Shown piece after piece: positions 49,112 through 60,122 of a stretch of 64,000 nucleotides of DNA. Numbering within the stretch: position 1 is the first letter of the stretch; the number at the start of each line of letters is the position of its first letter. The notes under the pieces were generated by a model, which worked only from the letters and a program-made list of their open reading frames with translations, had not been told where the DNA came from and did not search any database. The position numbers and the translations under genes were made by a program. Origin of the DNA: Candidatus Doudnabacteria bacterium (GTDB taxonomy: Bacteria; Patescibacteriota; Doudnabacteria; UBA920); the NCBI GenBank assembly GCA_016218585.1, contig JACRDK010000004.1, positions 21,347 to 85,346 of the forward strand, given 5' to 3'.

Positions 49112-51406
49112 TTATCTGTCAAAGTTTCTTCTTGGGGGGCGGGAGCCGCCGTGGCCGCCGCGGTTGCCACCCATTGGTCGGCGCGGACGGTCAAAACCGT
49201 GATCACCGCCTCCTTGAGCGAGTTGCTCAGGAGTAGCTGCTGCTGCAAACGGCTTATGGGTTAAATTAATTCTCCCTTGGTCGTCTATTTCGCTTACCTG
49301 AACCTTTAATGTGTCGCCAATCTTTACAACATCTTCTACTTTGTTCACGCGATAATTGGCTAACTGGGAAATATGGACAAGTCCGTCTTTGCCCGGCAAG
49401 ACTTCCACAAAAGCGCCAAAATCCATAATGCGAACAACTTTGCCTTCGTAAATTTCTCCCGGCTCAACTTCTTTAACAATATTTTGAATCCATTCCACTG
49501 CTTTCTTGGCGCTTTCGGCATCGGTAGAAGTTACCATAACCAAACCGTCGTCTTCAATATCAATTTTAACACCCGGGCAGTTGGCAATAATTTCGTTAAT
49601 GGTTTTACCGCCGCTGCCAATAACTTCGCGGATTTTATCAGGCTTGATTTTGAATGAAGTAATGCGAGGAGCATACGGAGACAAATCTGCGCGCGGAGCG
49701 GAAATAGCTTCTTTCATTTTGCTTATAATATGGGTACGGGCAGGTTTGGCTTGTTCTAAAGCTTTAGCCAAAATATCCGCACTCAAACCTTTTAGCTTCA
49801 TATCTAACTGCAAAGCGGTTACGCCGTCTTCGCTGCCGGTAACTTTAAAGTCCATATGTCCGTTAAAATCTTCTATTCCGGCAATGTCGGTTAAAACTTT
49901 AAAATTATTCGGGTTTTGTTCATCCATAACCAAACCCATGGCGCATCCGCCAATAATATGTTTTATAGGCACACCGGCATCCATTAAGGCCAGAGTTGAG
50001 CCGCAAGTGGAAGCCATAGAGGTTGAGCCATTGGAAGACATAATTTCAGAAACCAAGCGCATAGTGTAAGGGAATGCTTCCTGTTCCGGCAAAACTACTT
50101 CTACCGCGCGCTCAGCGAGCATACCGTGGCCAATTTCTCTGCGGCCAGGTCCGCGCAAAGGCGCAACTTCGCCAACAGAATATCCCGGCATATTGTAATG
50201 ATGAATATAGCGCTTGGTGCGGCCTTCAGTTGGATCTTCCATGCCGTCCAAAGTCTGTTCGTCACCTTTGCTGCCTAAAGTTACTACTGTAAGAGCTTGT
50301 GTTTCTCCGCGAGTAAACAAAGCGCTGCCGTGAGTTCTCGGCAATATTCCAACTTCGCAGGAAATTGGGCGAGTTTCGTTAAGAGCGCGCCCGTCCACGC
50401 GGCGTTCTTTTTCCAAAATTTGCTTTTGCTGATATTTCTTTAAAATTTTGTCTATAGATTTTGCAACTTCTTTTTCAATATTAACGCCTTCAATTTCGCC
50501 CAATGCGGCCATAGTTGCGGCAACAATTTCTTTAGACAAAGCGCTGACATTGGCTTCGCGGTCTTCCTTGCTTTTTACATACAAAGCCGCGTCTATTTTG
50601 TCGTCGGTCAATAATTCTTTAACTTTGGCAAAAACCTGTTCATTCGGTTTTATAATAATCGGTTCGGCTTTGGCTTTGCCAATTTGTTTGGCAAAATCCA
50701 GCTGGCATTTAACCAAAGTTCCTAAGAAGGGTTGCGCAAATTTAATTCCCTCTACAATTTCCGCTTCAGAAACCAGCTTAGCGCCCATTTCCACCATAAT
50801 AATGTGTTCGCCGGTACCACAGACAATTAAATCCATTGTGGAAGTTTCTTGCTGTTCGTGGGTTGGATTGATAATATATTTACCGTCAATTTTTCCAACT
50901 CTAACTCCGGCTACCGGACCGTCAAACGGCACTTCGGAAATAGCCAAAGCCATAGAGGCGGCGTTTACCGCGAGCATATCAGGTTCATTTTCTCCATCAA
51001 TGGAAAGAACCATGGCGGTTACCTGCACGTCGTTGCGCATGCCATCAGGAAACAACGGCCTTAAAGTTCGGTCAATAACGCGGCCCTTTAAAATTGCGTC
51101 ATCTGTTGCTCTGCCTTCGCGCTTAATCCAGCGGGAGCCTTTAATTTTTCCTGCCGCGTAAAGTCTTTCTTCGTAGTCAAGCAACAGTGGAAAAAAATCT
51201 ATTCCTTCCCTGGCTTTGTCATTCATAATTGTGGTTGCCAAAACAACCGTATCCCCTACGCGGGCTAATACGGCTCCACTGGCCTGACCGGCTAATTTGC
51301 CGGTTTCAAATACAAAATCAACTTCGCCGATTTTGCACGAAATCTTTTTGGATTCCATTTGGTTATCCTTTTGTTTCAAGAGACTGGCAAATTGACGATT
51401 CCCCAT
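49112..51406 (-). CDS. pnp: Polynucleotide phosphorylase with a Gly/Arg-rich C-terminal tail
   Basis: Two RNase PH domains, KH and S1 domains; tail GGGDHGFDRPRRPMGGNRGGHGGSRPPRRNFDR. Confidence 0.95.
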   Translation of the reverse strand: MGNRQFASLLKQKDNQMESKKISCKIGEVDFVFETGKLAGQASGAVLARVGDTVVLATTIMNDKAREGIDFFPLLLDYEERLYAAGKIKGSRWIKREGRATDDAILKGRVIDRTLRPLFPDGMRNDVQVTAMVLSIDGENEPDMLAVNAASMALAISEVPFDGPVAGVRVGKIDGKYIINPTHEQQETSTMDLIVCGTGEHIIMVEMGAKLVSEAEIVEGIKFAQPFLGTLVKCQLDFAKQIGKAKAEPIIIKPNEQVFAKVKELLTDDKIDAALYVKSKEDREANVSALSKEIVAATMAALGEIEGVNIEKEVAKSIDKILKKYQQKQILEKERRVDGRALNETRPISCEVGILPRTHGSALFTRGETQALTVVTLGSKGDEQTLDGMEDPTEGRTKRYIHHYNMPGYSVGEVAPLRGPGRREIGHGMLAERAVEVVLPEQEAFPYTMRLVSEIMSSNGSTSMASTCGSTLALMDAGVPIKHIIGGCAMGLVMDEQNPNNFKVLTDIAGIEDFNGHMDFKVTGSEDGVTALQLDMKLKGLSADILAKALEQAKPARTHIISKMKEAISAPRADLSPYAPRITSFKIKPDKIREVIGSGGKTINEIIANCPGVKIDIEDDGLVMVTSTDAESAKKAVEWIQNIVKEVEPGEIYEGKVVRIMDFGAFVEVLPGKDGLVHISQLANYRVNKVEDVVKIGDTLKVQVSEIDDQGRINLTHKPFAAAATPEQLAQGGGDHGFDRPRRPMGGNRGGHGGSRPPRRNFDR

Positions 51407-51459: not shown

Positions 51460-51873
51460 TTATTTTTTACTGCTTAAAACTTCCCTAATTTTACCTAAAA
51501 TTTCGTCCGGTGTAAAGTAGGCTTTTACCATATAACCGTCGACTTTTAGAGCCTGGGTTTTTAAAATATCTTCGTTGCTCCAAAGATTGCTTAGCACGAT
51601 TATTGGCAATGAAGCTAACTTTTTGTCTTTGCTGCCGCGGATTTTTGCCAAAACCTGAAAACCGTCCATCTCCGGCATCATTAAATCAAGCAACATTAAA
51701 TCAGGAGCGGACTCCTCGCACATTTCCACGGCACGAAGGCCATTTTCTGCATGGCGAACGTCATAACCGCTCGCAGTTAGCTTATGGCTTACAATTTCCG
51801 CCATCGCCGCGTCATCTTCAGCAACAATAATATTTATTTTTGTTTGAGCCATATATAATAAAAAATTTCCCAT
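51460..51873 (-). CDS. Stand-alone response-regulator receiver (CheY-like) domain
   Basis: IVAEDD...LMLLDLMMP...K receiver motifs; 137 aa with no output domain. Confidence 0.8.
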   Translation of the reverse strand: MGNFLLYMAQTKINIIVAEDDAAMAEIVSHKLTASGYDVRHAENGLRAVEMCEESAPDLMLLDLMMPEMDGFQVLAKIRGSKDKKLASLPIIVLSNLWSNEDILKTQALKVDGYMVKAYFTPDEILGKIREVLSSKK

Positions 51874-51907
51874 AATTATTATAACATAAATAGTATTTTC
51901 GCTTAAA

Positions 51908-51920
51908 TTGTGGTATAATA
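51908..51920 (+). promoter_or_regulatory. Extended -10 promoter element (TGGTATAAT) for the 51.9-58.4 kb operon
   Basis: TGnTATAAT about 30 nt upstream of the first start codon. Confidence 0.4.
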
Positions 51921-51949
51921 TTTAATATTATTTAATATTTACTTATATT

Positions 51950-53008
51950 TTGGCAAAACAAAAAAATAATAAAAATTCTGACCAATTTGAACTTAAGGAA
52001 TTCGACGGACACCGCCTAGTCTCTTTCATTTACGACCCCAAAACTAATCTGGAAGGTTTTATCGCAATTCACCGAGGAGACCCGGCTTTTGGCGCTACTA
52101 GAATTTGTTCATACCAAAATAGAACTGAGGCATTACGCGATGCGCTCAGGCTCTCCAAATTAATGTCGTACAAAGCAGCAATGGCTGGTTTGAAATATGG
52201 CGGAGCAAAATCAGTAATTATTCTTCCGAAGCAAAGTCAAAACAAAAATAACCTGCTTAAAGCCTATGCAAAAAAAGTTAATTTGCTTGGCGGACATTTT
52301 ATTACCGGTGCGGACGTTGGCATTTCTGCGGATGATGTTAAATTAATGCGGCAATCCAGTCCTTATTTTATCGGCGTTAATGTTGACCCGGTAAAATATA
52401 CAGCTTTAGGAATTTTTTACGCTTTAGAAGAATCTTTGAAAGAGATTTTTGGCGACAAAAGCTTGAGCAACAGGAGTTTCGCCATTCAGGGAGCGGGAAA
52501 AATTGGCACAGCCTTTCTAAAACATCTGTATGGGAAAACAAAAACTATTTATATTGCGGACAGCAACTTACAAAAGCTAAAAGAAGTTAAAAAAGCTTTT
52601 CCTAAAGTAATTATTACCAGCGTCGAAGACATATTTAAACAAAAAGTGGACGTGCTATCCCCTTGCGCTATGGGGCATGTTTTAAACTCCGAAACCATAA
52701 AACAAATAAGAGCGCCTTTAATTGTAGGCGGCGCAAATAACCAACTTGCAAGCCCTGAAATTGGCAATACCTTGTTTAAACAAGGTATCTTATACGCCCC
52801 CGATTATATTGTTAACGGAGGCGGAATGATTTCTGTTGTATCTGAATACGAAAATTCTAAAATAAATGACTCGAAAATAATAAAAAAACTGGATATTATT
52901 CCTCAGACTCTCGGCAAGGTCATAAAAAAAAGTTTACAACAAAAACTTGCAACCAATATTGTAGCCGATAGAATGGCTGAAAAAATATTCAACAATTTAA
53001 ATATTTAA
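51950..53008 (+). CDS. Glu/Leu/Phe/Val dehydrogenase-family amino-acid dehydrogenase (352 aa, Leu/Val/Phe-DH size); TTG start
   Basis: GFIAIHRGDPAFGATR and the KYGGAKSVI lysine motif; Rossmann fold GAGKIG. Confidence 0.75.
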   Translation: MAKQKNNKNSDQFELKEFDGHRLVSFIYDPKTNLEGFIAIHRGDPAFGATRICSYQNRTEALRDALRLSKLMSYKAAMAGLKYGGAKSVIILPKQSQNKNNLLKAYAKKVNLLGGHFITGADVGISADDVKLMRQSSPYFIGVNVDPVKYTALGIFYALEESLKEIFGDKSLSNRSFAIQGAGKIGTAFLKHLYGKTKTIYIADSNLQKLKEVKKAFPKVIITSVEDIFKQKVDVLSPCAMGHVLNSETIKQIRAPLIVGGANNQLASPEIGNTLFKQGILYAPDYIVNGGGMISVVSEYENSKINDSKIIKKLDIIPQTLGKVIKKSLQQKLATNIVADRMAEKIFNNLNI

Positions 53009-54507
53009 TGCCCACCCCGACGCCAAAACAAATTTTAAAAGATCTTAAATCCAAACAAGAAAACTACTGGCTAAAAAGAGGGGAAAATATGGCGCTCAAG
53101 CTTTTTAAGCAAATGGCAGCCAGAGTTCCCGCCTATAAAGACTTTTTAAAAAAACAAAAAATTAACCCGGATAAAATTAAATCGGGCGCAGATTTTTCTT
53201 CTGTCCCTGTAACTTCAAAAGACACTTACCTGCGCCGCTATCCGCTGGAACAACTTTGTTGGGATGGAAAATTTTCAAGCAAGCAGTGGGTAATTGCCGC
53301 TACATCGGGCTCAACCGGTGAACCATTTTATTTTCCAAGAACTTCAGAGCAAGACCGGCAATATGCATTATTAGCAGAGCTTTACTTAAAAACAAATTTT
53401 CAGATTGATAAAAAATCAACTCTTTATATAAATGCTTTTGCTTTAGGGATATGGATTGGCGGTTTGTTTACTTACCAGGCAATAAAATTAATTGCGGATA
53501 CGGGACAGTACCACTTAAGCATTATTAACCCAGGTTTAAATAAAAATGAAATTTTAAATGCGGTTAAAAAATTTGGCGGAAAATTCGACCAAATAATTAT
53601 TGGCGGCTACCCTCCATTTGTAAAAGAAGTTCTTGATGAGGGTGTTGAAAAAAAGATAAACTGGAAAAAAAATAATTTGAAATTCGTTTTTTCTGCTGAG
53701 TCATTCACTGAAAATTTTCGGGATTATATTTTAAATCTAGCCGGAGCTTCTAATCCTTATTTATCTACCCTAAACCATTACGGCACTGTTGATCAAGGAA
53801 CTCTCGCCTACGAAACGCCAATCAGCGTTTTAATTAGACGGCTCGAAGTTGAAGGGGGGCTAAAAAGCAAACCAATTTTTAGTGATTCTATGACTCAGCC
53901 AACATTAGCTCAATATTTACCTGAGATGTTTTATTTTCAAGAAGAAAGAGGGCGCCTAATTTGTTCCTCACAGAGCGGGATTCCATTATTTCGATATGAC
54001 CTGAAAGATAAAGGAGGCATAATACATTTTGAAAAAATGACAGAGCTTTTCTCAGAAAATGGCGTTGATTTAAAAAAAGAGTGTATAAATAAAAAAATTT
54101 CTGAAACGGTTTGGAAACTTCCCTTTGTTTATGTTTATGAAAGAAGTGATATGGTGGTTAGCTGGTATGGCGCCAATATTTACCCGCAGCATATCAAAGA
54201 ATCACTCCTTTTAACAGAACAGTCCGGCAAACTTACCGGCAAGTTCAGCTCCGTATTAGAGAGAGATAAAAACCACAATCCTTTTTTACACGTCAACATT
54301 GAACTTAAAAAAAATGTTCAACCCACGGCAAATCTTTCTAATTTACTAACAGCATCTTTAGTCAGAACTCTTTTAGAAAAAAATTCAGAATTTCGAAACA
54401 ACTACTCTACCCTGCCTAAAAAAAATACCCCAAAAATTACCCTTTGGCCTTATAAGAGCTCGCCTTACTTCAAAGGCGGAGGAAAACAAAAATGGACAAT
54501 AAAATAA
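53008..54507 (+). CDS. PaaK / coenzyme-F390-synthetase-like adenylate-forming ligase (ANL superfamily, COG1541-like)
   Basis: ATSGSTGEPFYFPRT P-loop analogue, YGTVDQG and RYDLKDKGG motifs; its start overlaps the upstream stop (TAATG). Confidence 0.6.
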   Translation: MPTPTPKQILKDLKSKQENYWLKRGENMALKLFKQMAARVPAYKDFLKKQKINPDKIKSGADFSSVPVTSKDTYLRRYPLEQLCWDGKFSSKQWVIAATSGSTGEPFYFPRTSEQDRQYALLAELYLKTNFQIDKKSTLYINAFALGIWIGGLFTYQAIKLIADTGQYHLSIINPGLNKNEILNAVKKFGGKFDQIIIGGYPPFVKEVLDEGVEKKINWKKNNLKFVFSAESFTENFRDYILNLAGASNPYLSTLNHYGTVDQGTLAYETPISVLIRRLEVEGGLKSKPIFSDSMTQPTLAQYLPEMFYFQEERGRLICSSQSGIPLFRYDLKDKGGIIHFEKMTELFSENGVDLKKECINKKISETVWKLPFVYVYERSDMVVSWYGANIYPQHIKESLLLTEQSGKLTGKFSSVLERDKNHNPFLHVNIELKKNVQPTANLSNLLTASLVRTLLEKNSEFRNNYSTLPKKNTPKITLWPYKSSPYFKGGGKQKWTIK

Positions 54508-54516
54508 ACAGACAAA

Positions 54517-55650
54517 ATGAAAAAAAATATTACAACAACTGAAGACCGCGAACTGTGGCAGCCAATCCACATAAAAAATATTGAGAATTGGCAAAAAACT
54601 CTTGCTAAATTAAACCAACCTTCAGGTGGTGTGACTTTTGTTAATGAGGCAGAAACGCAGCTAGAGGAGCTTTACCAATTGCGCAACCCAAAAACCAGAT
54701 TTTTGCAGGATTACAAAAAAGAGTCTGACGAATTCAAATTCAAAAACATTCACAAGACTGAATGGTTTTATTTTCCGTGGCTAAAAAAAATGGTTTTATT
54801 TCTGAAAGAAGACATGCATACTGAACTTCGGACAGGAAGAAACAGAAACTTAATTACCAGTCAGGAACAAAAAAAATTCTATAACAGCCATATTACGATT
54901 TTGGGAATGAGCGTTGGCAGCCACGTAGCGCTCACTATTGCTTTGACGGGCGGAGGAAAATTCCTCACTCTTGCAGATCCGGATAAAATTTCCGGATCCA
55001 ACATTAATAGAATTCGCACAGGTTTTTATAACCTTGGGTTAAATAAAACCAAAGCCGTCGCCAGACAAATTTTTGAAATTAATCCTTATTCTAAAATAAA
55101 AATCTATCCTGAAGGCGTTAACGAAAAAAATCTTCATTCATTATTAAACAATAAAATAGACTTATTAATTGAAGAAACCGATTATCCTTATCTAAAAATT
55201 AAAATTAGGGAAATGGTAAGGCCTCTTGGCATACCGGTTATAATGGCCGCAGATAACGGAGATGGCGTGATTGCAGATATTGAAAGATATGATAAAAACA
55301 AAAAACTTCAAATCCTGCATGGACTTTTAGGATCCATGACCTCGGAAGAGTTTAAATTAATCCCCCCTCGCAATCTGCCTAAAATTATGGCTAAAATTGC
55401 GGGCGCAAAACTTTCCAGCGTAAGGATGATTGAATCTGTTATGGAAGTTGGCAATACTTTATATTCCTGGCCGCAACTCGGAAGTGCTGCAACTTTATGC
55501 GGTTCAGTCTTGGCAAATATTGGCAGAAAAATACTGTTAGGCCAACCATTAAAAAGCGGGAGATACGATATTAATATTGACGGTTTTTTCGGCGAGGAAA
55601 AAAATAAAAAACGCAAGGCCGTGTTATTAAAAAAATTAGGTGTAGAATGA
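54517..55650 (+). CDS. E1-like ThiF/MoeB/MccB-family adenylyltransferase with an N-terminal extension of about 115 aa
   Basis: ILGMSVGSHVALTIALTGGGKFLTLADPDKISGSNINR nucleotide-binding motif; IDLLIEETDYPY; the N-terminal domain has no ThiF counterpart. Confidence 0.65.
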   Translation: MKKNITTTEDRELWQPIHIKNIENWQKTLAKLNQPSGGVTFVNEAETQLEELYQLRNPKTRFLQDYKKESDEFKFKNIHKTEWFYFPWLKKMVLFLKEDMHTELRTGRNRNLITSQEQKKFYNSHITILGMSVGSHVALTIALTGGGKFLTLADPDKISGSNINRIRTGFYNLGLNKTKAVARQIFEINPYSKIKIYPEGVNEKNLHSLLNNKIDLLIEETDYPYLKIKIREMVRPLGIPVIMAADNGDGVIADIERYDKNKKLQILHGLLGSMTSEEFKLIPPRNLPKIMAKIAGAKLSSVRMIESVMEVGNTLYSWPQLGSAATLCGSVLANIGRKILLGQPLKSGRYDINIDGFFGEEKNKKRKAVLLKKLGVE

Positions 55651-56702
55651 TTGAAAAAATAACAAAAATACTTACTGAGGCAAATTTTGCTCCATCAGGT
55701 GACAACTGCCAGCCATGGAAGTTTAAAATAACCCCTAACGGATTACTATTATTCAACTTACCCGAAAAAGATAAGTCGGTATATAATTTTAATCAAAAGG
55801 CTGCTTATATCTCGCATGGCGCATTTATAGAAAATATTAAAATTGCCGCCCTTGCACATGGTTTAAAAACCACTATAAATTTATTTCCAGACATAAAAAA
55901 CCCAGACCTCGTAGCCGAGCTTGATTTTTCGCCATCAAATGGAGAAATCGATAATTTGTATGAATTCATAGAAAAAAGACACACCAACAGAAAACCATAC
56001 CTAGCAAAGCCAATCAGTGAAAATCAACTTTCGGAACTACTAAACTTAAAAGTTGATTCTTTCGACGGGAAAATTGTAATGGTTACAGCGCGTGAACATA
56101 TAAAAACTTTAGCGCAACTATTAAGTATTAATGAGAAGATAGTATTACAAAACAAAAAACTGCACCAATTCTTGTTCGGCAATATTAGTTGGGGCCAGGA
56201 AGGCTTACAAAAAAATGACAAAATGTTCATAAAAACTCTGGAGATGAATCCGTTACAACAGTTCGTCTTCAAATTATGTTCCTCCTGGAAAATAATGAAT
56301 TTTTTTGACAAATTTGGGTTGGCAAAATTTATCTCCAAAGAGAATTCTAAAATATACTCTAACTCGGGTGCAATTGGAGCAATAATAACTTCAAAAAACT
56401 CCAAAACTGATTTTGTGCAGGGTGGCAGACTACTGCAACGAACTTGGCTATTAGCCACCTCCATGGGATTATCATTACAGCCACTTGCCGGCATGGCTCT
56501 ACTTAATCAGATATTGGTTGCGGGGCAAAGGCAAGCACTTTCGCCAGAACACGCTATGGAAATCGAGGATTCAATAAAACACATATCAACTTTGATTAAT
56601 TCCGGCGACGAAAATATAATCTTTATGTTCCGAGTCGGCGAATCATCCGCGCCTTCTGCCGTTACCCCGCGGCTTCCAGTTGAAGAAATACTCTCCAAAT
56701 AA
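55647..56702 (+). CDS. Nitroreductase-fold (two-lobed, SagB/McbC-like) FMN oxidoreductase
   Basis: APSGDNCQPWKF motif; 351 aa double-domain arrangement; ATGA overlap with the upstream gene. Confidence 0.6.
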   Translation: MIEKITKILTEANFAPSGDNCQPWKFKITPNGLLLFNLPEKDKSVYNFNQKAAYISHGAFIENIKIAALAHGLKTTINLFPDIKNPDLVAELDFSPSNGEIDNLYEFIEKRHTNRKPYLAKPISENQLSELLNLKVDSFDGKIVMVTAREHIKTLAQLLSINEKIVLQNKKLHQFLFGNISWGQEGLQKNDKMFIKTLEMNPLQQFVFKLCSSWKIMNFFDKFGLAKFISKENSKIYSNSGAIGAIITSKNSKTDFVQGGRLLQRTWLLATSMGLSLQPLAGMALLNQILVAGQRQALSPEHAMEIEDSIKHISTLINSGDENIIFMFRVGESSAPSAVTPRLPVEEILSK

Positions 56703-56704
56703 AA

Positions 56705-58375
56705 ATGACAAACTTACTCACAAATTTAGGACTTCTTTCAGTCGGCATAGCAACCGCCGCAAATATTTTATTGGGGCTAGTAGTTTATTTGAGCAACAAG
56801 AAAAGCCAAACAAATAACTATTTTTTCTTATTTACATTTATCAGTTCAATTTGGGGAATATTTAATTTTTTACTTTATCAATTTCAAGATACCATAATTA
56901 TTTTATGGTTTATTCGCCTTGTAATGTTTTGTGCTATTTGGCAAGCCTATTCATTTTTCTTATTAACCTACGTTTATCCCGAAGAACAAAAAGACCTCCC
57001 TGTCATTACAAAAAAATATCTTATTTGGATAGTAATTATAACCTCAATTATCACACTTACTCCCATTATGTACTCTTCGGTAATCCCTCCAAAAAGTATT
57101 GGACAGGTTGCTGAAGCTGTTCCTGGGCCTGGAGTTTTAATATTTGCGATTGTTGCAATTGGCCTTGTTATAGTGAGCATTATTCAATTAATAAAAAGGC
57201 ATAAAAAGATTGCTCCAACTCAACGGACGCAGCTCAACCTGCTTTTTGCGGGCACTGCGATGACCTTCCTGTTAATAATTACCTTTAACTTTATTGCACC
57301 AAACTTCTTTCAAAATTATAATTACATACCCTTAGGATCAGTTTTTGTCTTCCCGTTTATAATTTTTACGGCTTATGCAATCTTAAAACACCACCTATTC
57401 AACGCAAAAGTAATTTCAACTGAAATCGCAACTTTTTTGCTTTTAGTTGCCAGCCTTGTTGAAATTGTTTTGTCTAAAACTTCATTTGAAATTACCCTGC
57501 GGTTCGTGATTTTTCTGATTTTGCTCGCTATAAGTACTGTTCTACTTAGAAGTGTAAGAAAAGAAGTTGAGCAGCGGGAGCAGTTGGAAATTTTGACCAA
57601 AGAATTAGAAAATGCAAACGAGAAATTAAAAGCTTTGGACAAAGCCAGGGCGGAATTTATTACTATTGCTTCCCACCAGCTGCGCACGCCGCCGGCGACA
57701 ATTAAATGGTATTTAAGCTCGGTCTTAGATGGCGACTACGGAAAAGTGCCAAAAGAGTTAAAAGATATTTTAGAAAAAACTAATCGCACCAACAACTCTT
57801 TAATTTCATTAGTTGATGACATGCTAAATGTCTCACGCATAGAGCGCGGCAAAATGGAATTTTTATTTCAGGAATCTAACCTGCTTGAGCTAGCCAAAAC
57901 CACCTTTGAACAACTTGAGCCAATAGCTAAAGAAAAAGGCCTCAAGCTCACTTTCAAATATCTTCCAAAAACCAAATTCCCCAAACTTATGGCAGACAAG
58001 GAAAAAGTCCGCCAGGTTATGAATAATTTAATAGATAACGCTATAAAATATACCAAACAAGGCTCCGTGGCTGTCATGCTGTCGGCCGATAATCAAGAAA
58101 TTAAATTTAGCGTTACCGATTCCGGCAAAGGCATAACCCCGGAAGAAAAAGAAAGCATCTTTGAAAAGTTCTCCCGCGGCAAAGAATCTGTTAAACAAAG
58201 CGCGGGACTAGGACTAGGCTTGTACGTTGCCAAAATTATTATTGCCCAGCACAAAGGCAAAATTTGGGCGGAGAGCCCCGGAGACGGTATGGGTTCTTCT
58301 TTTATCTTTACCTTGCCAATTAATAATGAATTAAAAGAAACGACATTGGTGGATTTAGCAAAAAACCAAGGTTAA
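56705..58375 (+). CDS. Sensor histidine kinase with an N-terminal polytopic (7-8 TM) domain
   Basis: H-box SHQLRTP, N-box NLIDNAIKYT, G1 DSGKGI, G2 GLGLGLY; starts 3 nt after the nitroreductase stop. Confidence 0.85.
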   Translation: MTNLLTNLGLLSVGIATAANILLGLVVYLSNKKSQTNNYFFLFTFISSIWGIFNFLLYQFQDTIIILWFIRLVMFCAIWQAYSFFLLTYVYPEEQKDLPVITKKYLIWIVIITSIITLTPIMYSSVIPPKSIGQVAEAVPGPGVLIFAIVAIGLVIVSIIQLIKRHKKIAPTQRTQLNLLFAGTAMTFLLIITFNFIAPNFFQNYNYIPLGSVFVFPFIIFTAYAILKHHLFNAKVISTEIATFLLLVASLVEIVLSKTSFEITLRFVIFLILLAISTVLLRSVRKEVEQREQLEILTKELENANEKLKALDKARAEFITIASHQLRTPPATIKWYLSSVLDGDYGKVPKELKDILEKTNRTNNSLISLVDDMLNVSRIERGKMEFLFQESNLLELAKTTFEQLEPIAKEKGLKLTFKYLPKTKFPKLMADKEKVRQVMNNLIDNAIKYTKQGSVAVMLSADNQEIKFSVTDSGKGITPEEKESIFEKFSRGKESVKQSAGLGLGLYVAKIIIAQHKGKIWAESPGDGMGSSFIFTLPINNELKETTLVDLAKNQG

Positions 58376-58389
58376 GTTTATAACAAAAA

Positions 58390-58421
58390 TCCCGCTCCGG
58401 TTTCTCGAGCGGGATTTTTTT
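58390..58421 (+). terminator. Rho-independent terminator closing the operon
   Basis: TCCCGCTC...GAGCGGGA followed by TTTTTTT. Confidence 0.7.
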
Positions 58422-58459
58422 ATTGTCTAATAACTATTCACTATTGCCTATTTACTATA

Positions 58460-58864
58460 TTACTTTTTCATACTGCCAAGCATCTCTTCTTCAAAGTGAA
58501 GCAAAAAAGGCAACGGATCAGGCGTGCTGCCAAATAATATATGGTCAACGCTGCTGCGCTGTCCCCTGTCTTTTTGGCTTTCTACGCCTTTCTTTTGAAA
58601 CCACTGGCGCCAATTTACGCTGAAATCTTTGTAAGTTTGGCTGTTCTCGCCGCCAAATCTTTCAAAAATAATATCGTACTTAGTTTTGTCGCAAATGTTA
58701 ATAAATTCACTTTTTTCATCAAGGCTTAAGAATCCATTTTTTTGTAGCGAATTCTTAATCTTCTGAATTGCCGGATTAATGTAAACCGCCTGACAAATTT
58801 CTCTGCCTAACTGCGTCCACAGCTTATCAAACTCTTCAAAATCAAAATTACCATTTTGGGTCAT
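58460..58864 (-). CDS. Hypothetical protein
   Basis: ORF only. Confidence 0.35.
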   Translation of the reverse strand: MTQNGNFDFEEFDKLWTQLGREICQAVYINPAIQKIKNSLQKNGFLSLDEKSEFINICDKTKYDIIFERFGGENSQTYKDFSVNWRQWFQKKGVESQKDRGQRSSVDHILFGSTPDPLPFLLHFEEEMLGSMKK

Positions 58865-58884: not shown

Positions 58885-59184
58885 TTATTCAGCTTTTTCG
58901 GCTACTTTCAATTTGAGCTTTTCAGCGATTTTTTCAAAGCGCTTTTGATCCTCATTTTTCAAGAATCTCAAAAGTCTTCTGCGATTGCCAACCATTTTTA
59001 ACAAACCTCTTCTGGAATGGTTGTCTTTGCGGTGAACTTTCAAGTGTTCGGAAACCTGTTCAATTTCCTTGGTCAAAATGGCAATTTGGACTTCCGGGCT
59101 TCCGGTGTCGTCCTTGTGCACTTGAAACTTTTTAATAATGGCGTTCTTCTCTTTTGCGCTTAACATGTTGTTGTCCTTCTGCAC
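58885..59184 (-). CDS. rpsO: 30S ribosomal protein S15
   Basis: [12 protein letters not shown]...[19 protein letters not shown]. Confidence 0.9.
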
Positions 59185-59261: not shown

Positions 59262-60122
59262 CTAATTTTGTAAATATGCCTTTTTGGCCCCGGACACCAA
59301 GTATTTAACAAACTCTCGGGCCACATTAAACTTAGTCAGCGCTTCAAAAGACTGGAGACCCGGAAACCGGTTCACTTCCAAAATATACAGCTTGCCGTTG
59401 CTTTCCAAAATGTCGGTTTTAGCCAGCTCGCGGCCTAAAATTTTTGCTGCTTTTTGAGCCAGACTGACCGCCTCAGCCAGCATATGGTCTCCTGCGGTGG
59501 TTGAAATATTAAGCACCTGATAATTTTTAAAATCCGGCCTTTTGGTTTTTTTATTAATAGCAAACTTTAAAATAACCGGCAGGGCTTTATAGCCTGCGGT
59601 TATAACTTTATATTCATATTCCGCGTTTACAAACTCCTGAAGCATTAGCTCGCTTTCCGGGTAAGCGCCGGGCAAGGAGCCTCCGGATTTTACCAAAAAT
59701 ACATTTTTGCCCTTAAACCCATAAATCCATTTGGCAATAAATATATCCTGTTTTAAAAATTCGGATTGCATGCTAAATAGCTCGGTTTTTGGAATGGGTA
59801 AACTATTTGCGAAAAGCACCCTATAGTCATCCCATTTGCCGCCGCCTAACAAACCATCTGCAATTACCTCATCCACAACTCTTTTGCCCCTGTTTTTAAA
59901 TTTCTTGGCCAAAGAAATAACATCTTTCAAATATTTAGGGCTTCTTTGCACATAAGGATTCCTAATATAAAGAACGTCATACTCGCCAGGTTCAATAATA
60001 AAGTTTTTTTCTGCCAGTTCAACAATTGGCATTACAACAAACTCACAATTTAAATTGCCGGCTTCGGCAAACAACCGCTTAGAAGCATAAGTTTCTGATG
60101 AAGATATGGCAAGAATTCTCAT
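59262..60122 (-). CDS. ATP-grasp fold ligase (RimK / glutathione-synthetase-like)
   Basis: KLYILEVNRFPGL C-terminal ATP-grasp motif; 286 aa. Confidence 0.55.
   Translation of the reverse strand: MRILAISSSETYASKRLFAEAGNLNCEFVVMPIVELAEKNFIIEPGEYDVLYIRNPYVQRSPKYLKDVISLAKKFKNRGKRVVDEVIADGLLGGGKWDDYRVLFANSLPIPKTELFSMQSEFLKQDIFIAKWIYGFKGKNVFLVKSGGSLPGAYPESELMLQEFVNAEYEYKVITAGYKALPVILKFAINKKTKRPDFKNYQVLNISTTAGDHMLAEAVSLAQKAAKILGRELAKTDILESNGKLYILEVNRFPGLQSFEALTKFNVAREFVKYLVSGAKKAYLQN

Follow-up and report, generated by a model that had tools for sequence, protein, structure and literature searches.

A widespread Patescibacteria operon that may encode a variant oxazolone or N-acyl-dehydroamino-acid pathway with its own two-component sensor

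A 64,000-nucleotide stretch of the genome of a Candidatus Doudnabacteria bacterium (GenBank assembly GCA_016218585.1, contig JACRDK010000004.1, positions 21,347 to 85,346 of the forward strand; the whole analysed stretch is referred to below as the window) harbors a five-gene operon that combines an ELFV-family amino-acid dehydrogenase, a PaaK-fold adenylate-forming ligase, a ThiF/E1-like enzyme, a nitroreductase-fold flavin enzyme and a seven-transmembrane (7TM) sensor histidine kinase, with a gene for a stand-alone receiver transcribed divergently. Here we show that this operon is a co-conserved functional unit found throughout the Candidate Phyla Radiation (CPR, Patescibacteria) and that its ThiF and flavin enzymes are collinear with the oxazolone synthetases of other bacteria, as which they probably function. 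On balance, we lean towards viewing the whole operon as a CPR-specific variant of the oxazolone/N-acyl-dehydroamino-acid pathway that is equipped with its own two-component sensor.

The operon lies on the + strand and begins with the dehydrogenase gene (51950-53008, 352 amino acids [aa], TTG start), followed by the genes for the ligase of the ANL fold whose family marks the cluster (53008-54507, 499 aa), the ATP-dependent ThiF/E1-like enzyme of the Rv1355c/TrzS/OxzB type (54517-55650, 377 aa; hereafter ThiF), the two-lobed flavin enzyme of the FDO/Acg type (55647-56702, 351 aa; hereafter FDO or nitroreductase) and the kinase (56705-58375, 556 aa). The receiver gene (51460-51873, - strand) encodes a protein of 137 aa without output domain. 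These six open reading frames (ORFs) had been placed at the same positions in an earlier note on this DNA, and its domain calls for all six agree with our Pfam, NCBIfam and structural searches. Its view that the five co-directional genes constitute one operon is confirmed both by the gene junctions and by the recurrence of the set in related loci.

Recurrence of the cluster in CPR genomes

A scan of one genome per species returned 156 genomes with a relative, the best 80 of which were fetched, and BLAST searches with ORF-level annotation covered 82 non-redundant loci, including 53 whose flanks extend at least 4 kb and 6 kb and that are referred to as complete. The module is present in at least 156 species genomes that are essentially all CPR, with record titles naming Doudnabacteria, Magasanikbacteria, Paceibacterota, Kaiser-, Nomura-, Adler- and Liptonbacteria, along with Roizman-, Woese-, Gottesman- and Woykebacteria and Saccharimonadia. 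Records at 15 of the loci are labelled 'uncultured Gammaproteobacteria' or 'Polyangiaceae' and carry the CPR-typical cluster in the same gene order, one of them on a 0.94-Mb chromosome; these third-party assemblies probably bear the wrong taxon label.

The gene set is strongly co-conserved. ThiF is encoded in all 53 complete loci, FDO in 42, and either the ELFV dehydrogenase (37 loci) or a class-I aminotransferase (12 loci), but never both, in 49. A 7TM kinase resides beside the enzymes in 49 of the 53, and a single-domain receiver adjoins the cluster in 31, located either divergently upstream or just after the kinase, which bears out the proposal of the earlier note that the operon is tied to such a pair. 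No kinase was detected in four complete loci, two of which (L001 and L008) feature a restriction-modification-like insertion that displaces the distal genes out of range. This insertion (11300-16143 in L001) comprises an N6_N4 methyltransferase and a ResIII/SWI2-SNF2 helicase and splits the cluster between ThiF and the nitroreductase. Three look-ups begun from ThiF matches all reach the same cluster, as do three look-ups of ligases that are 30-34% identical, and the 7TM kinase is present in each of them. The gene order differs with the lineage, being dehydrogenase-ligase-ThiF-FDO-kinase in Doudna- and Magasanikbacteria, ThiF-dehydrogenase-ligase-FDO-kinase in Paceibacteria, and receiver (-), aminotransferase (-), ThiF, ligase, FDO (-) and kinase in Saccharimonadia, a pattern that speaks for long residence and against a recent spread.

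Natural fusions join the enzymes to each other in several combinations: dehydrogenase-ligase (L088, 856 aa with no internal stop, and P0262), ligase-ThiF (L018, 889 aa, and P0241), ThiF-ligase (P0319), the triple combination dehydrogenase-ligase-ThiF (P0309, the 1242-aa Patescibacteria protein MBU0546338.1) and ThiF-FDO, which occurs in 7 CPR loci (e.g. L081). An alpha/beta-hydrolase is fused to FDO in 4 loci and to ThiF in 1, while a hydrolase of the BphD/enol-lactonase type is encoded by a separate gene in 12 further loci. The arrangement of the gene set is far beyond chance, and it is effectively certain that the operon is a co-conserved functional unit. Our literature search retrieved no description of this CPR cluster, and the supplements of PMC10633639 contain no ThiF-named entry for Southlakia epibionticum, a genetically tractable Saccharibacterium, in a search that covered names only.

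ThiF, FDO and the oxazolone synthetases

ThiF from the window matches the NCBIfam model NF005901 ('Rv1355c family') at 1.3e-88 and 298 bits, with residues 8-366 on profile positions 5-347 of 722, and the nitroreductase matches positions 377-718 of the same model at 191 bits. The latter also scores 210 bits on PRK14851 and 154 bits on the Acg family, and its match in the PDB is Acg (2ymv, 4.7e-7). The curated cut-off of NF005901 (476 bits) is set for a fused protein, whereas the two halves from the window are scored separately; the naturally fused CPR ThiF-FDO protein of L081 attains 452 bits over profile positions 24-713. Given this near miss, we treat the CPR proteins as a sister clade and not as strict equivalogs.

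For a direct comparison of the families, we used a 710-aa 'Rv1355c family protein' encoded on a Rhodococcus plasmid as stand-in for TrzS, OxzB, TyzB and TyzC. ThiF residues 39-354 align with residues 9-330 of this protein (35% identity, E 2e-51) and nitroreductase residues 16-337 with residues 381-702 (22% identity, E 6e-16), the two window proteins being collinear with the fused Rhodococcus protein as they are with NF005901. Several members of this family have been characterised. Rv1355c is TrzS, which converts N-acyl tryptophan into N-acyl tryptazolone by an ATP-dependent cyclisation and a subsequent O2-dependent desaturation (PMC12856293). The founding 'oxazolone synthetase' is OxzB (A0A5S3UR53) from Pseudoalteromonas rubra (bioRxiv 10.1101/2020.06.11.147165), and Mycobacterium tuberculosis divides the two activities between TyzB (ThiF, P95234) and TyzC (FDO, P95233; PMC10404671). 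Organisms that make N-acyl dehydrotyrosines have the same ThiF/FDO genes alongside N-acyl amino acid synthases (PMC12479983). Oxazolones do not survive acid or alcohols (PMC12856293). On the basis of this collinearity, the E1 and nitroreductase pair is a known catalytic pair rather than an unprecedented one, and we consider it probable that ThiF and FDO of the window work like an oxazolone synthetase.

The residues of the ATP site (R105/R108, GMSVGSH, SNxNRxR, K177 and EExD222) are invariant in 24 of 24 CPR ThiF sequences, and the alignment with the Rhodococcus protein suggests that D222 is equivalent to D217 of TrzS, whose mutation abolishes cyclisation. An AlphaFold2 (AF2) model of ThiF has a predicted local distance difference test (pLDDT) score of 86.5 and is also confident over the N-terminal ~100 residues. 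It is here that the earlier note had described an unexplained domain of 115 aa, possibly a peptide clamp or akin to the recognition element (RRE) of systems for RiPPs (ribosomally synthesised peptides with post-translational modifications). A distinct N-terminal region does exist, but it measures ~97 residues before the helix LRTGRNRNLIT, which we take to be the canonical E1 arginine-finger element (compare LRYNRQ of MoeB). Nor is most of the region unexplained: a WFYFPW strand and the LRTGRNRNLIT helix precede the Rossmann fold in both the window ThiF and the Rhodococcus protein and are included in the match between them, making the N-terminal domain largely a family feature. The peptide clamp also finds no counterpart in the structural comparison, as AclA, MccB, ThiF and MoeB all align with the model on the E1 core only in a Foldseek search against the PDB, MccB, which carries an RRE peptide clamp, with TM-scores of 0.44-0.51.

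The closest solved structure to the ThiF core is that of AclA from Tenacibaculum discolor (9egb/9egc, 2025; TM-score 0.74-0.75), deposited as 'in complex with substrate'. Our literature search on the function of AclA found nothing; the structure may be informative on small-molecule ThiF chemistry. A further uncharacterised architecture of the ThiF clade is found on a plasmid of Streptomyces sp. NBC_01431 (L085, 7209-10123), where a protein of 622 aa has ~270 additional, unassigned residues at its N-terminus before the Rv1355c-type ThiF half (397 bits on NF005901 positions 26-340); a KAS III gene comes next, and FDO is missing.

Like TrzS and OxzB, the window system features a putative E1-like cyclase and then a putative two-lobed flavin desaturase in the same order, with the region N-terminal to the E1 core (WFYFPW...LRTGRNRN) and the Asp of the ATP site, and some CPR genomes carry the fused form. 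It differs in that the two enzymes are encoded by two genes with an ATGA overlap and score just under the equivalog cut-off, that a PaaK-fold ligase and a deaminating enzyme are present instead of an N-acyltransferase of the OxzA/TrzA type, that a 7TM kinase is linked, and that the host is a CPR bacterium rather than a member of the Actinomycetota or Pseudomonadota. Separate but adjacent ThiF and FDO genes within one operon are likewise found in TyzA/TyzB/TyzC of M. tuberculosis, which makes tyrazolone, and in the clusters that combine an N-acyl amino acid synthase (NAS), ThiF and nitroreductase and whose products are the N-acyl dehydrotyrosines known as the thalassotalic acids, the kyonggic acids and the stieleriacines. 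The window system may resemble these also in products derived from aromatic amino acids and perhaps in a ring-opened dehydro acid as end product. By contrast, they use an N-acyl amino acid synthase with acyl-coenzyme A (CoA) or acyl-acyl carrier protein (ACP) and, as published, come without PaaK-like ligase, ELFV dehydrogenase and co-transcribed kinase.

Ligase, entry enzyme and two-component sensor

The ligase has no match in Pfam, and its matches to the PaaK and F390-synthetase models are weak and N-terminal (NCBIfam PaaK 1e-11, 43.8 bits versus a cut-off of 646). Its AF2 model (pLDDT 84.6) reveals a complete PaaK-type two-domain fold whose best Foldseek match is PaaK1 (2y27; E 2.6e-26, TM-score 0.78, 16% identity). 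In an alignment of 23 family members, TSGSTGEPFYFPR, the hinge motif ERSD and the C-terminal motif GGKQKW are invariant. The homologues number more than 2000, the best 120 being all at least 51% identical and ~500 aa long, and in a library clustered at 50% identity the family has 1776 representatives at E<=1e-3, of which 532 reach E<=1e-30. With PaaK and the closoxazole enzyme ClxA the window ligase has in common the two-domain ANL fold, the A3 motif, the hinge and the C-terminal Lys, but it is only 16-18% identical, ~70 residues longer and lacks a paa catabolic context.

ClxA (9s45, E 1e-16), which is among the Foldseek matches of the ligase, is a PaaK-fold enzyme documented as an amide ligase (PMC9400959, PMC12519233) showing that direct formation of amide or ester bonds is within the reach of this fold. 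No acyltransferase-like gene of the OxzA, TyzA, TrzA or NasY type is conserved in the 82 loci, where the only recurrent extra families are the aminotransferase, the alpha/beta-hydrolase and lineage-specific neighbours. On the basis that no acyltransferase is conserved, that the ligase is universally present and that ClxA provides a precedent, we propose that the ligase forms an amide, occupying the place of the known N-acyltransferase and joining a deaminated acid to an amino acid. The ligase-ThiF fusions argue that the ligase product keeps a carboxylate, as ThiF would require; an N-acyl amino acid would have one, whereas a CoA thioester would not.

The acid would come from the entry enzyme, which is interchangeable between genomes. 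The window dehydrogenase exceeds the Pfam cut-offs for ELFV_dehydrog_N and ELFV_dehydrog, and its best NCBIfam match is the tryptophan dehydrogenase ScyB (275 bits, below the cut-off of 600). In the PDB it is closest to tryptophan dehydrogenase (TrpDH, 5b37, 1e-66) and to one leucine dehydrogenase (LeuDH, 3vpx, 1e-64), with other leucine dehydrogenases matching more weakly. The catalytic residues K75, K87 and D122 and the pocket residue G120 are each found in 48 of 48 CPR homologues, of which 38 have Leu and 2 have Met at position 293. Gly120 and Leu/Met293 are the states of phenylalanine dehydrogenase (PheDH) and TrpDH, as opposed to the Ala (Ala113) and Val (Val291) of LeuDH; presumably these positions play the roles assigned to them by the mutagenesis of PheDH G124/L307 and by the TrpDH structure. 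The pocket therefore appears to resemble that of a Phe/Trp dehydrogenase.

The class-I aminotransferase replaces the dehydrogenase in 21 loci. In L091, a 557-aa MIO-containing protein of the aromatic ammonia-lyase family with a GASGDL motif takes the place of the entry enzyme, scoring 301 bits on the phenylalanine ammonia-lyase model and 284 bits on the histidine ammonia-lyase model. A 92-aa fragment of an aromatic/histidine ammonia-lyase lies just upstream of the nitroreductase gene in L001. The activity common to dehydrogenase, aminotransferase and lyase is the deamination of an amino acid, leaving a carboxylic acid. As this is the sole activity that they share, we infer that the deaminated acid, rather than the amino acid, is handed to the ligase, in keeping with the fusions of dehydrogenase and ligase and with the specificity for arylacetates among the ligase's structural relatives. 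Both the dehydrogenase pocket and the lyase family point to an aromatic amino acid as the probable substrate.

The kinase matches HisKA_7TM, HisKA and HATPase_c in Pfam, with the H-box ASHQLRTPP and the N and G boxes visible in the translation. The receiver matches Response_reg (1.1e-21 over residues 15-129) and retains a DD acidic pocket, a phospho-accepting D within LLDLMMP, as well as conserved S and K residues. Small-molecule biosynthetic genes are co-transcribed with a polytopic histidine kinase of 6-7 transmembrane segments and a cognate receiver in the cqsA-cqsS, lqsA-lqsS and agrBDCA systems. The enzymes of these systems are not known to be homologous to those of the window, and the window receiver is without DNA-binding output. 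That kinase and receiver are kept with the enzymes throughout the radiation, mostly within one transcription unit, is the cluster's most striking trait. It is a reasonable hypothesis that the kinase senses the pathway product; our literature search for HisKA_7TM ligands gave nothing relevant.

The kinases of Saccharimonadia and Microgenomates clusters are larger than that of the window (~720 versus 556 aa), and the 744-aa kinase of L091 (10572-12806) exhibits weak GAF matches between the membrane region and HisKA. Genes of type IV pili directly flank the receiver or the cluster at three loci: pilC in L062 (7457-8509), pilB (T2SSE) and pilC (T2SSF) in L084 (5782-8507) and a gene for a prepilin N_methyl protein after the receiver in L091 (13217-13705). 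They give a weak hint that type IV pili might be an output of the CheY-like receiver.

Proposed pathway, its alternatives and the genomic setting

In the pathway that we propose, the ELFV dehydrogenase, or in other genomes an aminotransferase or aromatic ammonia-lyase, would deaminate a probably aromatic amino acid to a carboxylic acid such as an arylpyruvate. The PaaK-fold ligase would then adenylate this acid and couple it to a second amino acid through the amine of the latter, yielding an N-acyl amino acid, a step that would need no acyl-CoA- or ACP-dependent N-acyltransferase. Next, ThiF would adenylate the carboxylate of the N-acyl amino acid such that the amide oxygen closes a 5(4H)-oxazolone (azlactone), into which FDO would introduce a C-alpha=C-beta double bond. 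Where the alpha/beta-hydrolase is present, the azlactone would probably be opened or transferred to give an N-acyl-dehydroamino acid. The 7TM kinase and CheY-like receiver could sense the product or a related cue, or else couple production to a cellular response. Cyclisation and desaturation rest on family homology in this scheme, and the deamination step on the displacement of one entry enzyme by another.

Several points weigh against this pathway. All substrates are assigned by inference, and so are the oxazolone as product, amide formation by the ligase and the part that the kinase plays. Sequence alone does not separate an amide-forming ligase from a CoA ligase, and the closest structures to the ligase (PaaK, BT_0428 and HCL) are CoA ligases. 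Dehydrogenase and aminotransferase are reversible and might instead supply an amino acid, and the lyase variant that argues for deamination is intact in a single locus. Even the fused CPR form falls just under the NF005901 cut-off, which together with identities of only 35% (ThiF) and 22% (FDO) leaves room for another reaction on the same scaffold. The characterised FDOs need O2, whereas many CPR bacteria are regarded as anaerobes. Moreover, FDO is missing at BLAST sensitivity from 11 of the 53 complete loci; L008 and L013 carry one farther along, but the gene spacing in others (e.g. L057) leaves no room for it, so desaturation would not be universal. Finally, the linkage of the kinase does not show that the pathway product is its ligand.

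The strongest rival explanation retains the scaffold but not the chemistry: ligase and ThiF would activate two carboxylates in turn and the flavoenzyme would oxidise, with a product that is not an oxazolone and could be a different heterocycle, a lactam, a thioacid or an acyl group moved to a cell-envelope amine. The position of the CPR proteins as a sister group below the Rv1355c equivalog cut-off is compatible with this, as are the wide neofunctionalisation of ThiF-like enzymes (reviewed in PMC12596934), a front end unlike that of all characterised oxazolone clusters and the alpha/beta-hydrolase, a possible transferase, in about one fifth of the clusters. However, the collinear homology runs through the entire ThiF-FDO architecture and takes in the family-specific WFYFPW region, and no other characterised ThiF or nitroreductase model scores nearly as high, so that we hold a different chemistry to be possible but unlikely. 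Considerably less probable is a catabolic or salvage route from an aromatic amino acid via arylpyruvate or an aryl acid to aryl-CoA, with a kinase that senses the nutrient and with ThiF and nitroreductase as accessory or unrelated proteins. Dehydrogenase, aminotransferase and lyase do catalyse classical first steps of amino-acid degradation, and the ligase is structurally closest to aryl-acid CoA ligases, yet the ligase scores far below the PaaK cut-off, the clusters conserve neither a decarboxylase or oxidoreductase nor downstream genes of the paa type, and ThiF is both present in every complete locus and fused to the ligase in several proteins.

The earlier note had likened the E1 and nitroreductase pair to the C and B components of azoline-forming RiPP systems, in which an E1 with a peptide-binding N-terminus and a SagB-like dehydrogenase would modify a ribosomal precursor or a protein C-terminus. 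Pairs of an E1-like protein and a nitroreductase-fold FMN dehydrogenase do occur in such systems, including SagBCD and the thiazole/oxazole-modified microcins (TOMM), the E1 core has MccB among its structural matches, and the first ~38 ThiF residues fall outside the alignment with the actinobacterial protein. From residue 39 onwards, however, the ThiF N-terminus is common to small-molecule oxazolone synthetases, the ATP site of the window E1 is intact, and the fusions join ThiF to the dehydrogenase and the ligase rather than to peptide-handling proteins. No ocin_ThiF_like, SagB, cyclodehydratase or other TOMM model matched at E<=0.01, and YcaO is missing from the conserved ORFs of the loci, as the same note had remarked for the window. 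A precursor peptide or ubiquitin-like partner was not found either: when the 20-89-aa ORFs of the 82 loci were clustered, none was conserved in its own right, the recurrent ones being antisense shadows of receiver, HU and diacylglycerol kinase genes. With gene junctions of at most 9 nt, the operon has no space for a precursor, and no ORF of at least 20 aa fits the intergenic region upstream of it. The pair is better described as a split oxazolone-synthetase architecture; we regard peptide modification as slightly more improbable still than catabolism, and of the proposed peptide or aminoacyl-type small molecule the small molecule is supported while the peptide is not. A housekeeping E1 that activates ThiS/MoaD for thiamine or molybdopterin synthesis, or acts like TcdA on tRNA ct6A, is effectively refuted. 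ThiF does have a generic ThiF match in Pfam, and TcdA is its best sequence match among solved structures (3e-7), but the ThiF/MoeB/TcdA equivalogs score 27-68 bits against cut-offs of 152-647 (the next-best ThiF model ~67) versus the 298 bits reached on the Rv1355c family model, the window has no ThiS/MoaD-like ORF and none is conserved, and both CxxC zinc motifs and a rhodanese domain are absent. We also rejected a role in anti-phage defence, for which PADLOC returned only a generic E1-E2 (Cap2-like) match of ThiF (1e-12) and nothing for the other enzymes.

The gene junctions, read directly from the DNA, are a TAATG overlap between dehydrogenase and ligase, a 9-nt spacer between ligase and ThiF, an ATGA overlap between ThiF and nitroreductase and a spacer before the kinase that is 2 nt long and not 3 nt as first noted, the two overlaps being as described. 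The divergent intergenic region of 76 bp (51874-51949) contains a putative promoter, the extended -10 element TGGTATAAT (51911-51919, +), 31 nt 5' of the TTG at 51950, which is the only possible start of the dehydrogenase; a consensus promoter scan did not list TGGTATAAT because it has no good -35. The strong terminator reported at the operon end is indeed there (~58380-58423, +), with a 13-bp G+C-rich stem followed by U7, a folding energy of -19.4 kcal/mol and z = -5.19 (0 of 200 shuffles as good). A second promoter-like site (56592-56620, +; TTGATT-17-TATAAT, 10/12 matches), inside the 3' end of the nitroreductase gene and ~85 nt upstream of the kinase start, could allow independent transcription of the kinase.

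Almost all surrounding genes in the first 51 kb of the window are on the - strand. The receiver-plus-operon block is located between rpsO (58885-59184, -) and pnp (49112-51406, -), which are normally neighbours, and has a G+C content of 35-37% versus 42-47% in the adjacent pnp. While low G+C and position suggested a recent insertion, this was rejected, since the rpsO-pnp slot holds the cluster in four relatives too, whose polynucleotide phosphorylase (PNPase) is 83-97% identical; the placement is therefore old within this lineage. Between the terminator and rpsO lies a 134-aa ORF (58460-58864, -) without Pfam or NCBIfam match, which is syntenic and 69-78% identical in L005, L006, L020 and L088. 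This ORF exceeds most cluster enzymes in conservation, is absent from clusters outside this lineage and is probably part of the rpsO context. Next to rpsO is a 286-aa protein of the RimK-like ATP-grasp type (59262-60122, -), which is only 42-66% identical in relatives with PNPase 85-97% identical.

While the catalytic core of ThiF and FDO is of an already known kind, the ligase-based front end with its interchangeable deaminating enzyme, the optional hydrolase, the linked 7TM kinase and receiver and the CPR-wide distribution are new. CPR bacteria are defined by poor synthetic capacity, and yet a five-gene pathway with a sensor is kept across Microgenomates, Parcubacteria, Doudnabacteria and Saccharimonadia, which implies an important and so far unstudied function. 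If our reading of the operon is right, it would extend oxazolone/N-acyl-dehydroamino-acid chemistry to a new phylum-level group and add a new, probably CoA-independent route to an N-acyl amino acid, for the biochemistry of which the natural fusions are ready-made constructs. The discovery papers call the biological role of bacterial oxazolones unknown, and the near-constant linkage to a 7TM kinase offers the hypothesis that they are signals. We tentatively entertain, as a rather doubtful extension, that the cassette is a chemical signalling system widespread in CPR, in which a labile azlactone or N-acyl-dehydroamino acid derived from an aromatic acid would serve as autoinducer-like or host-directed signal, sensed by the 7TM kinase and relayed to the CheY-like receiver with type IV pili perhaps as the output. 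If true, this would be the first small-molecule circuit for cell-to-cell or symbiont-host signalling in CPR and the first biological role for bacterial oxazolones.

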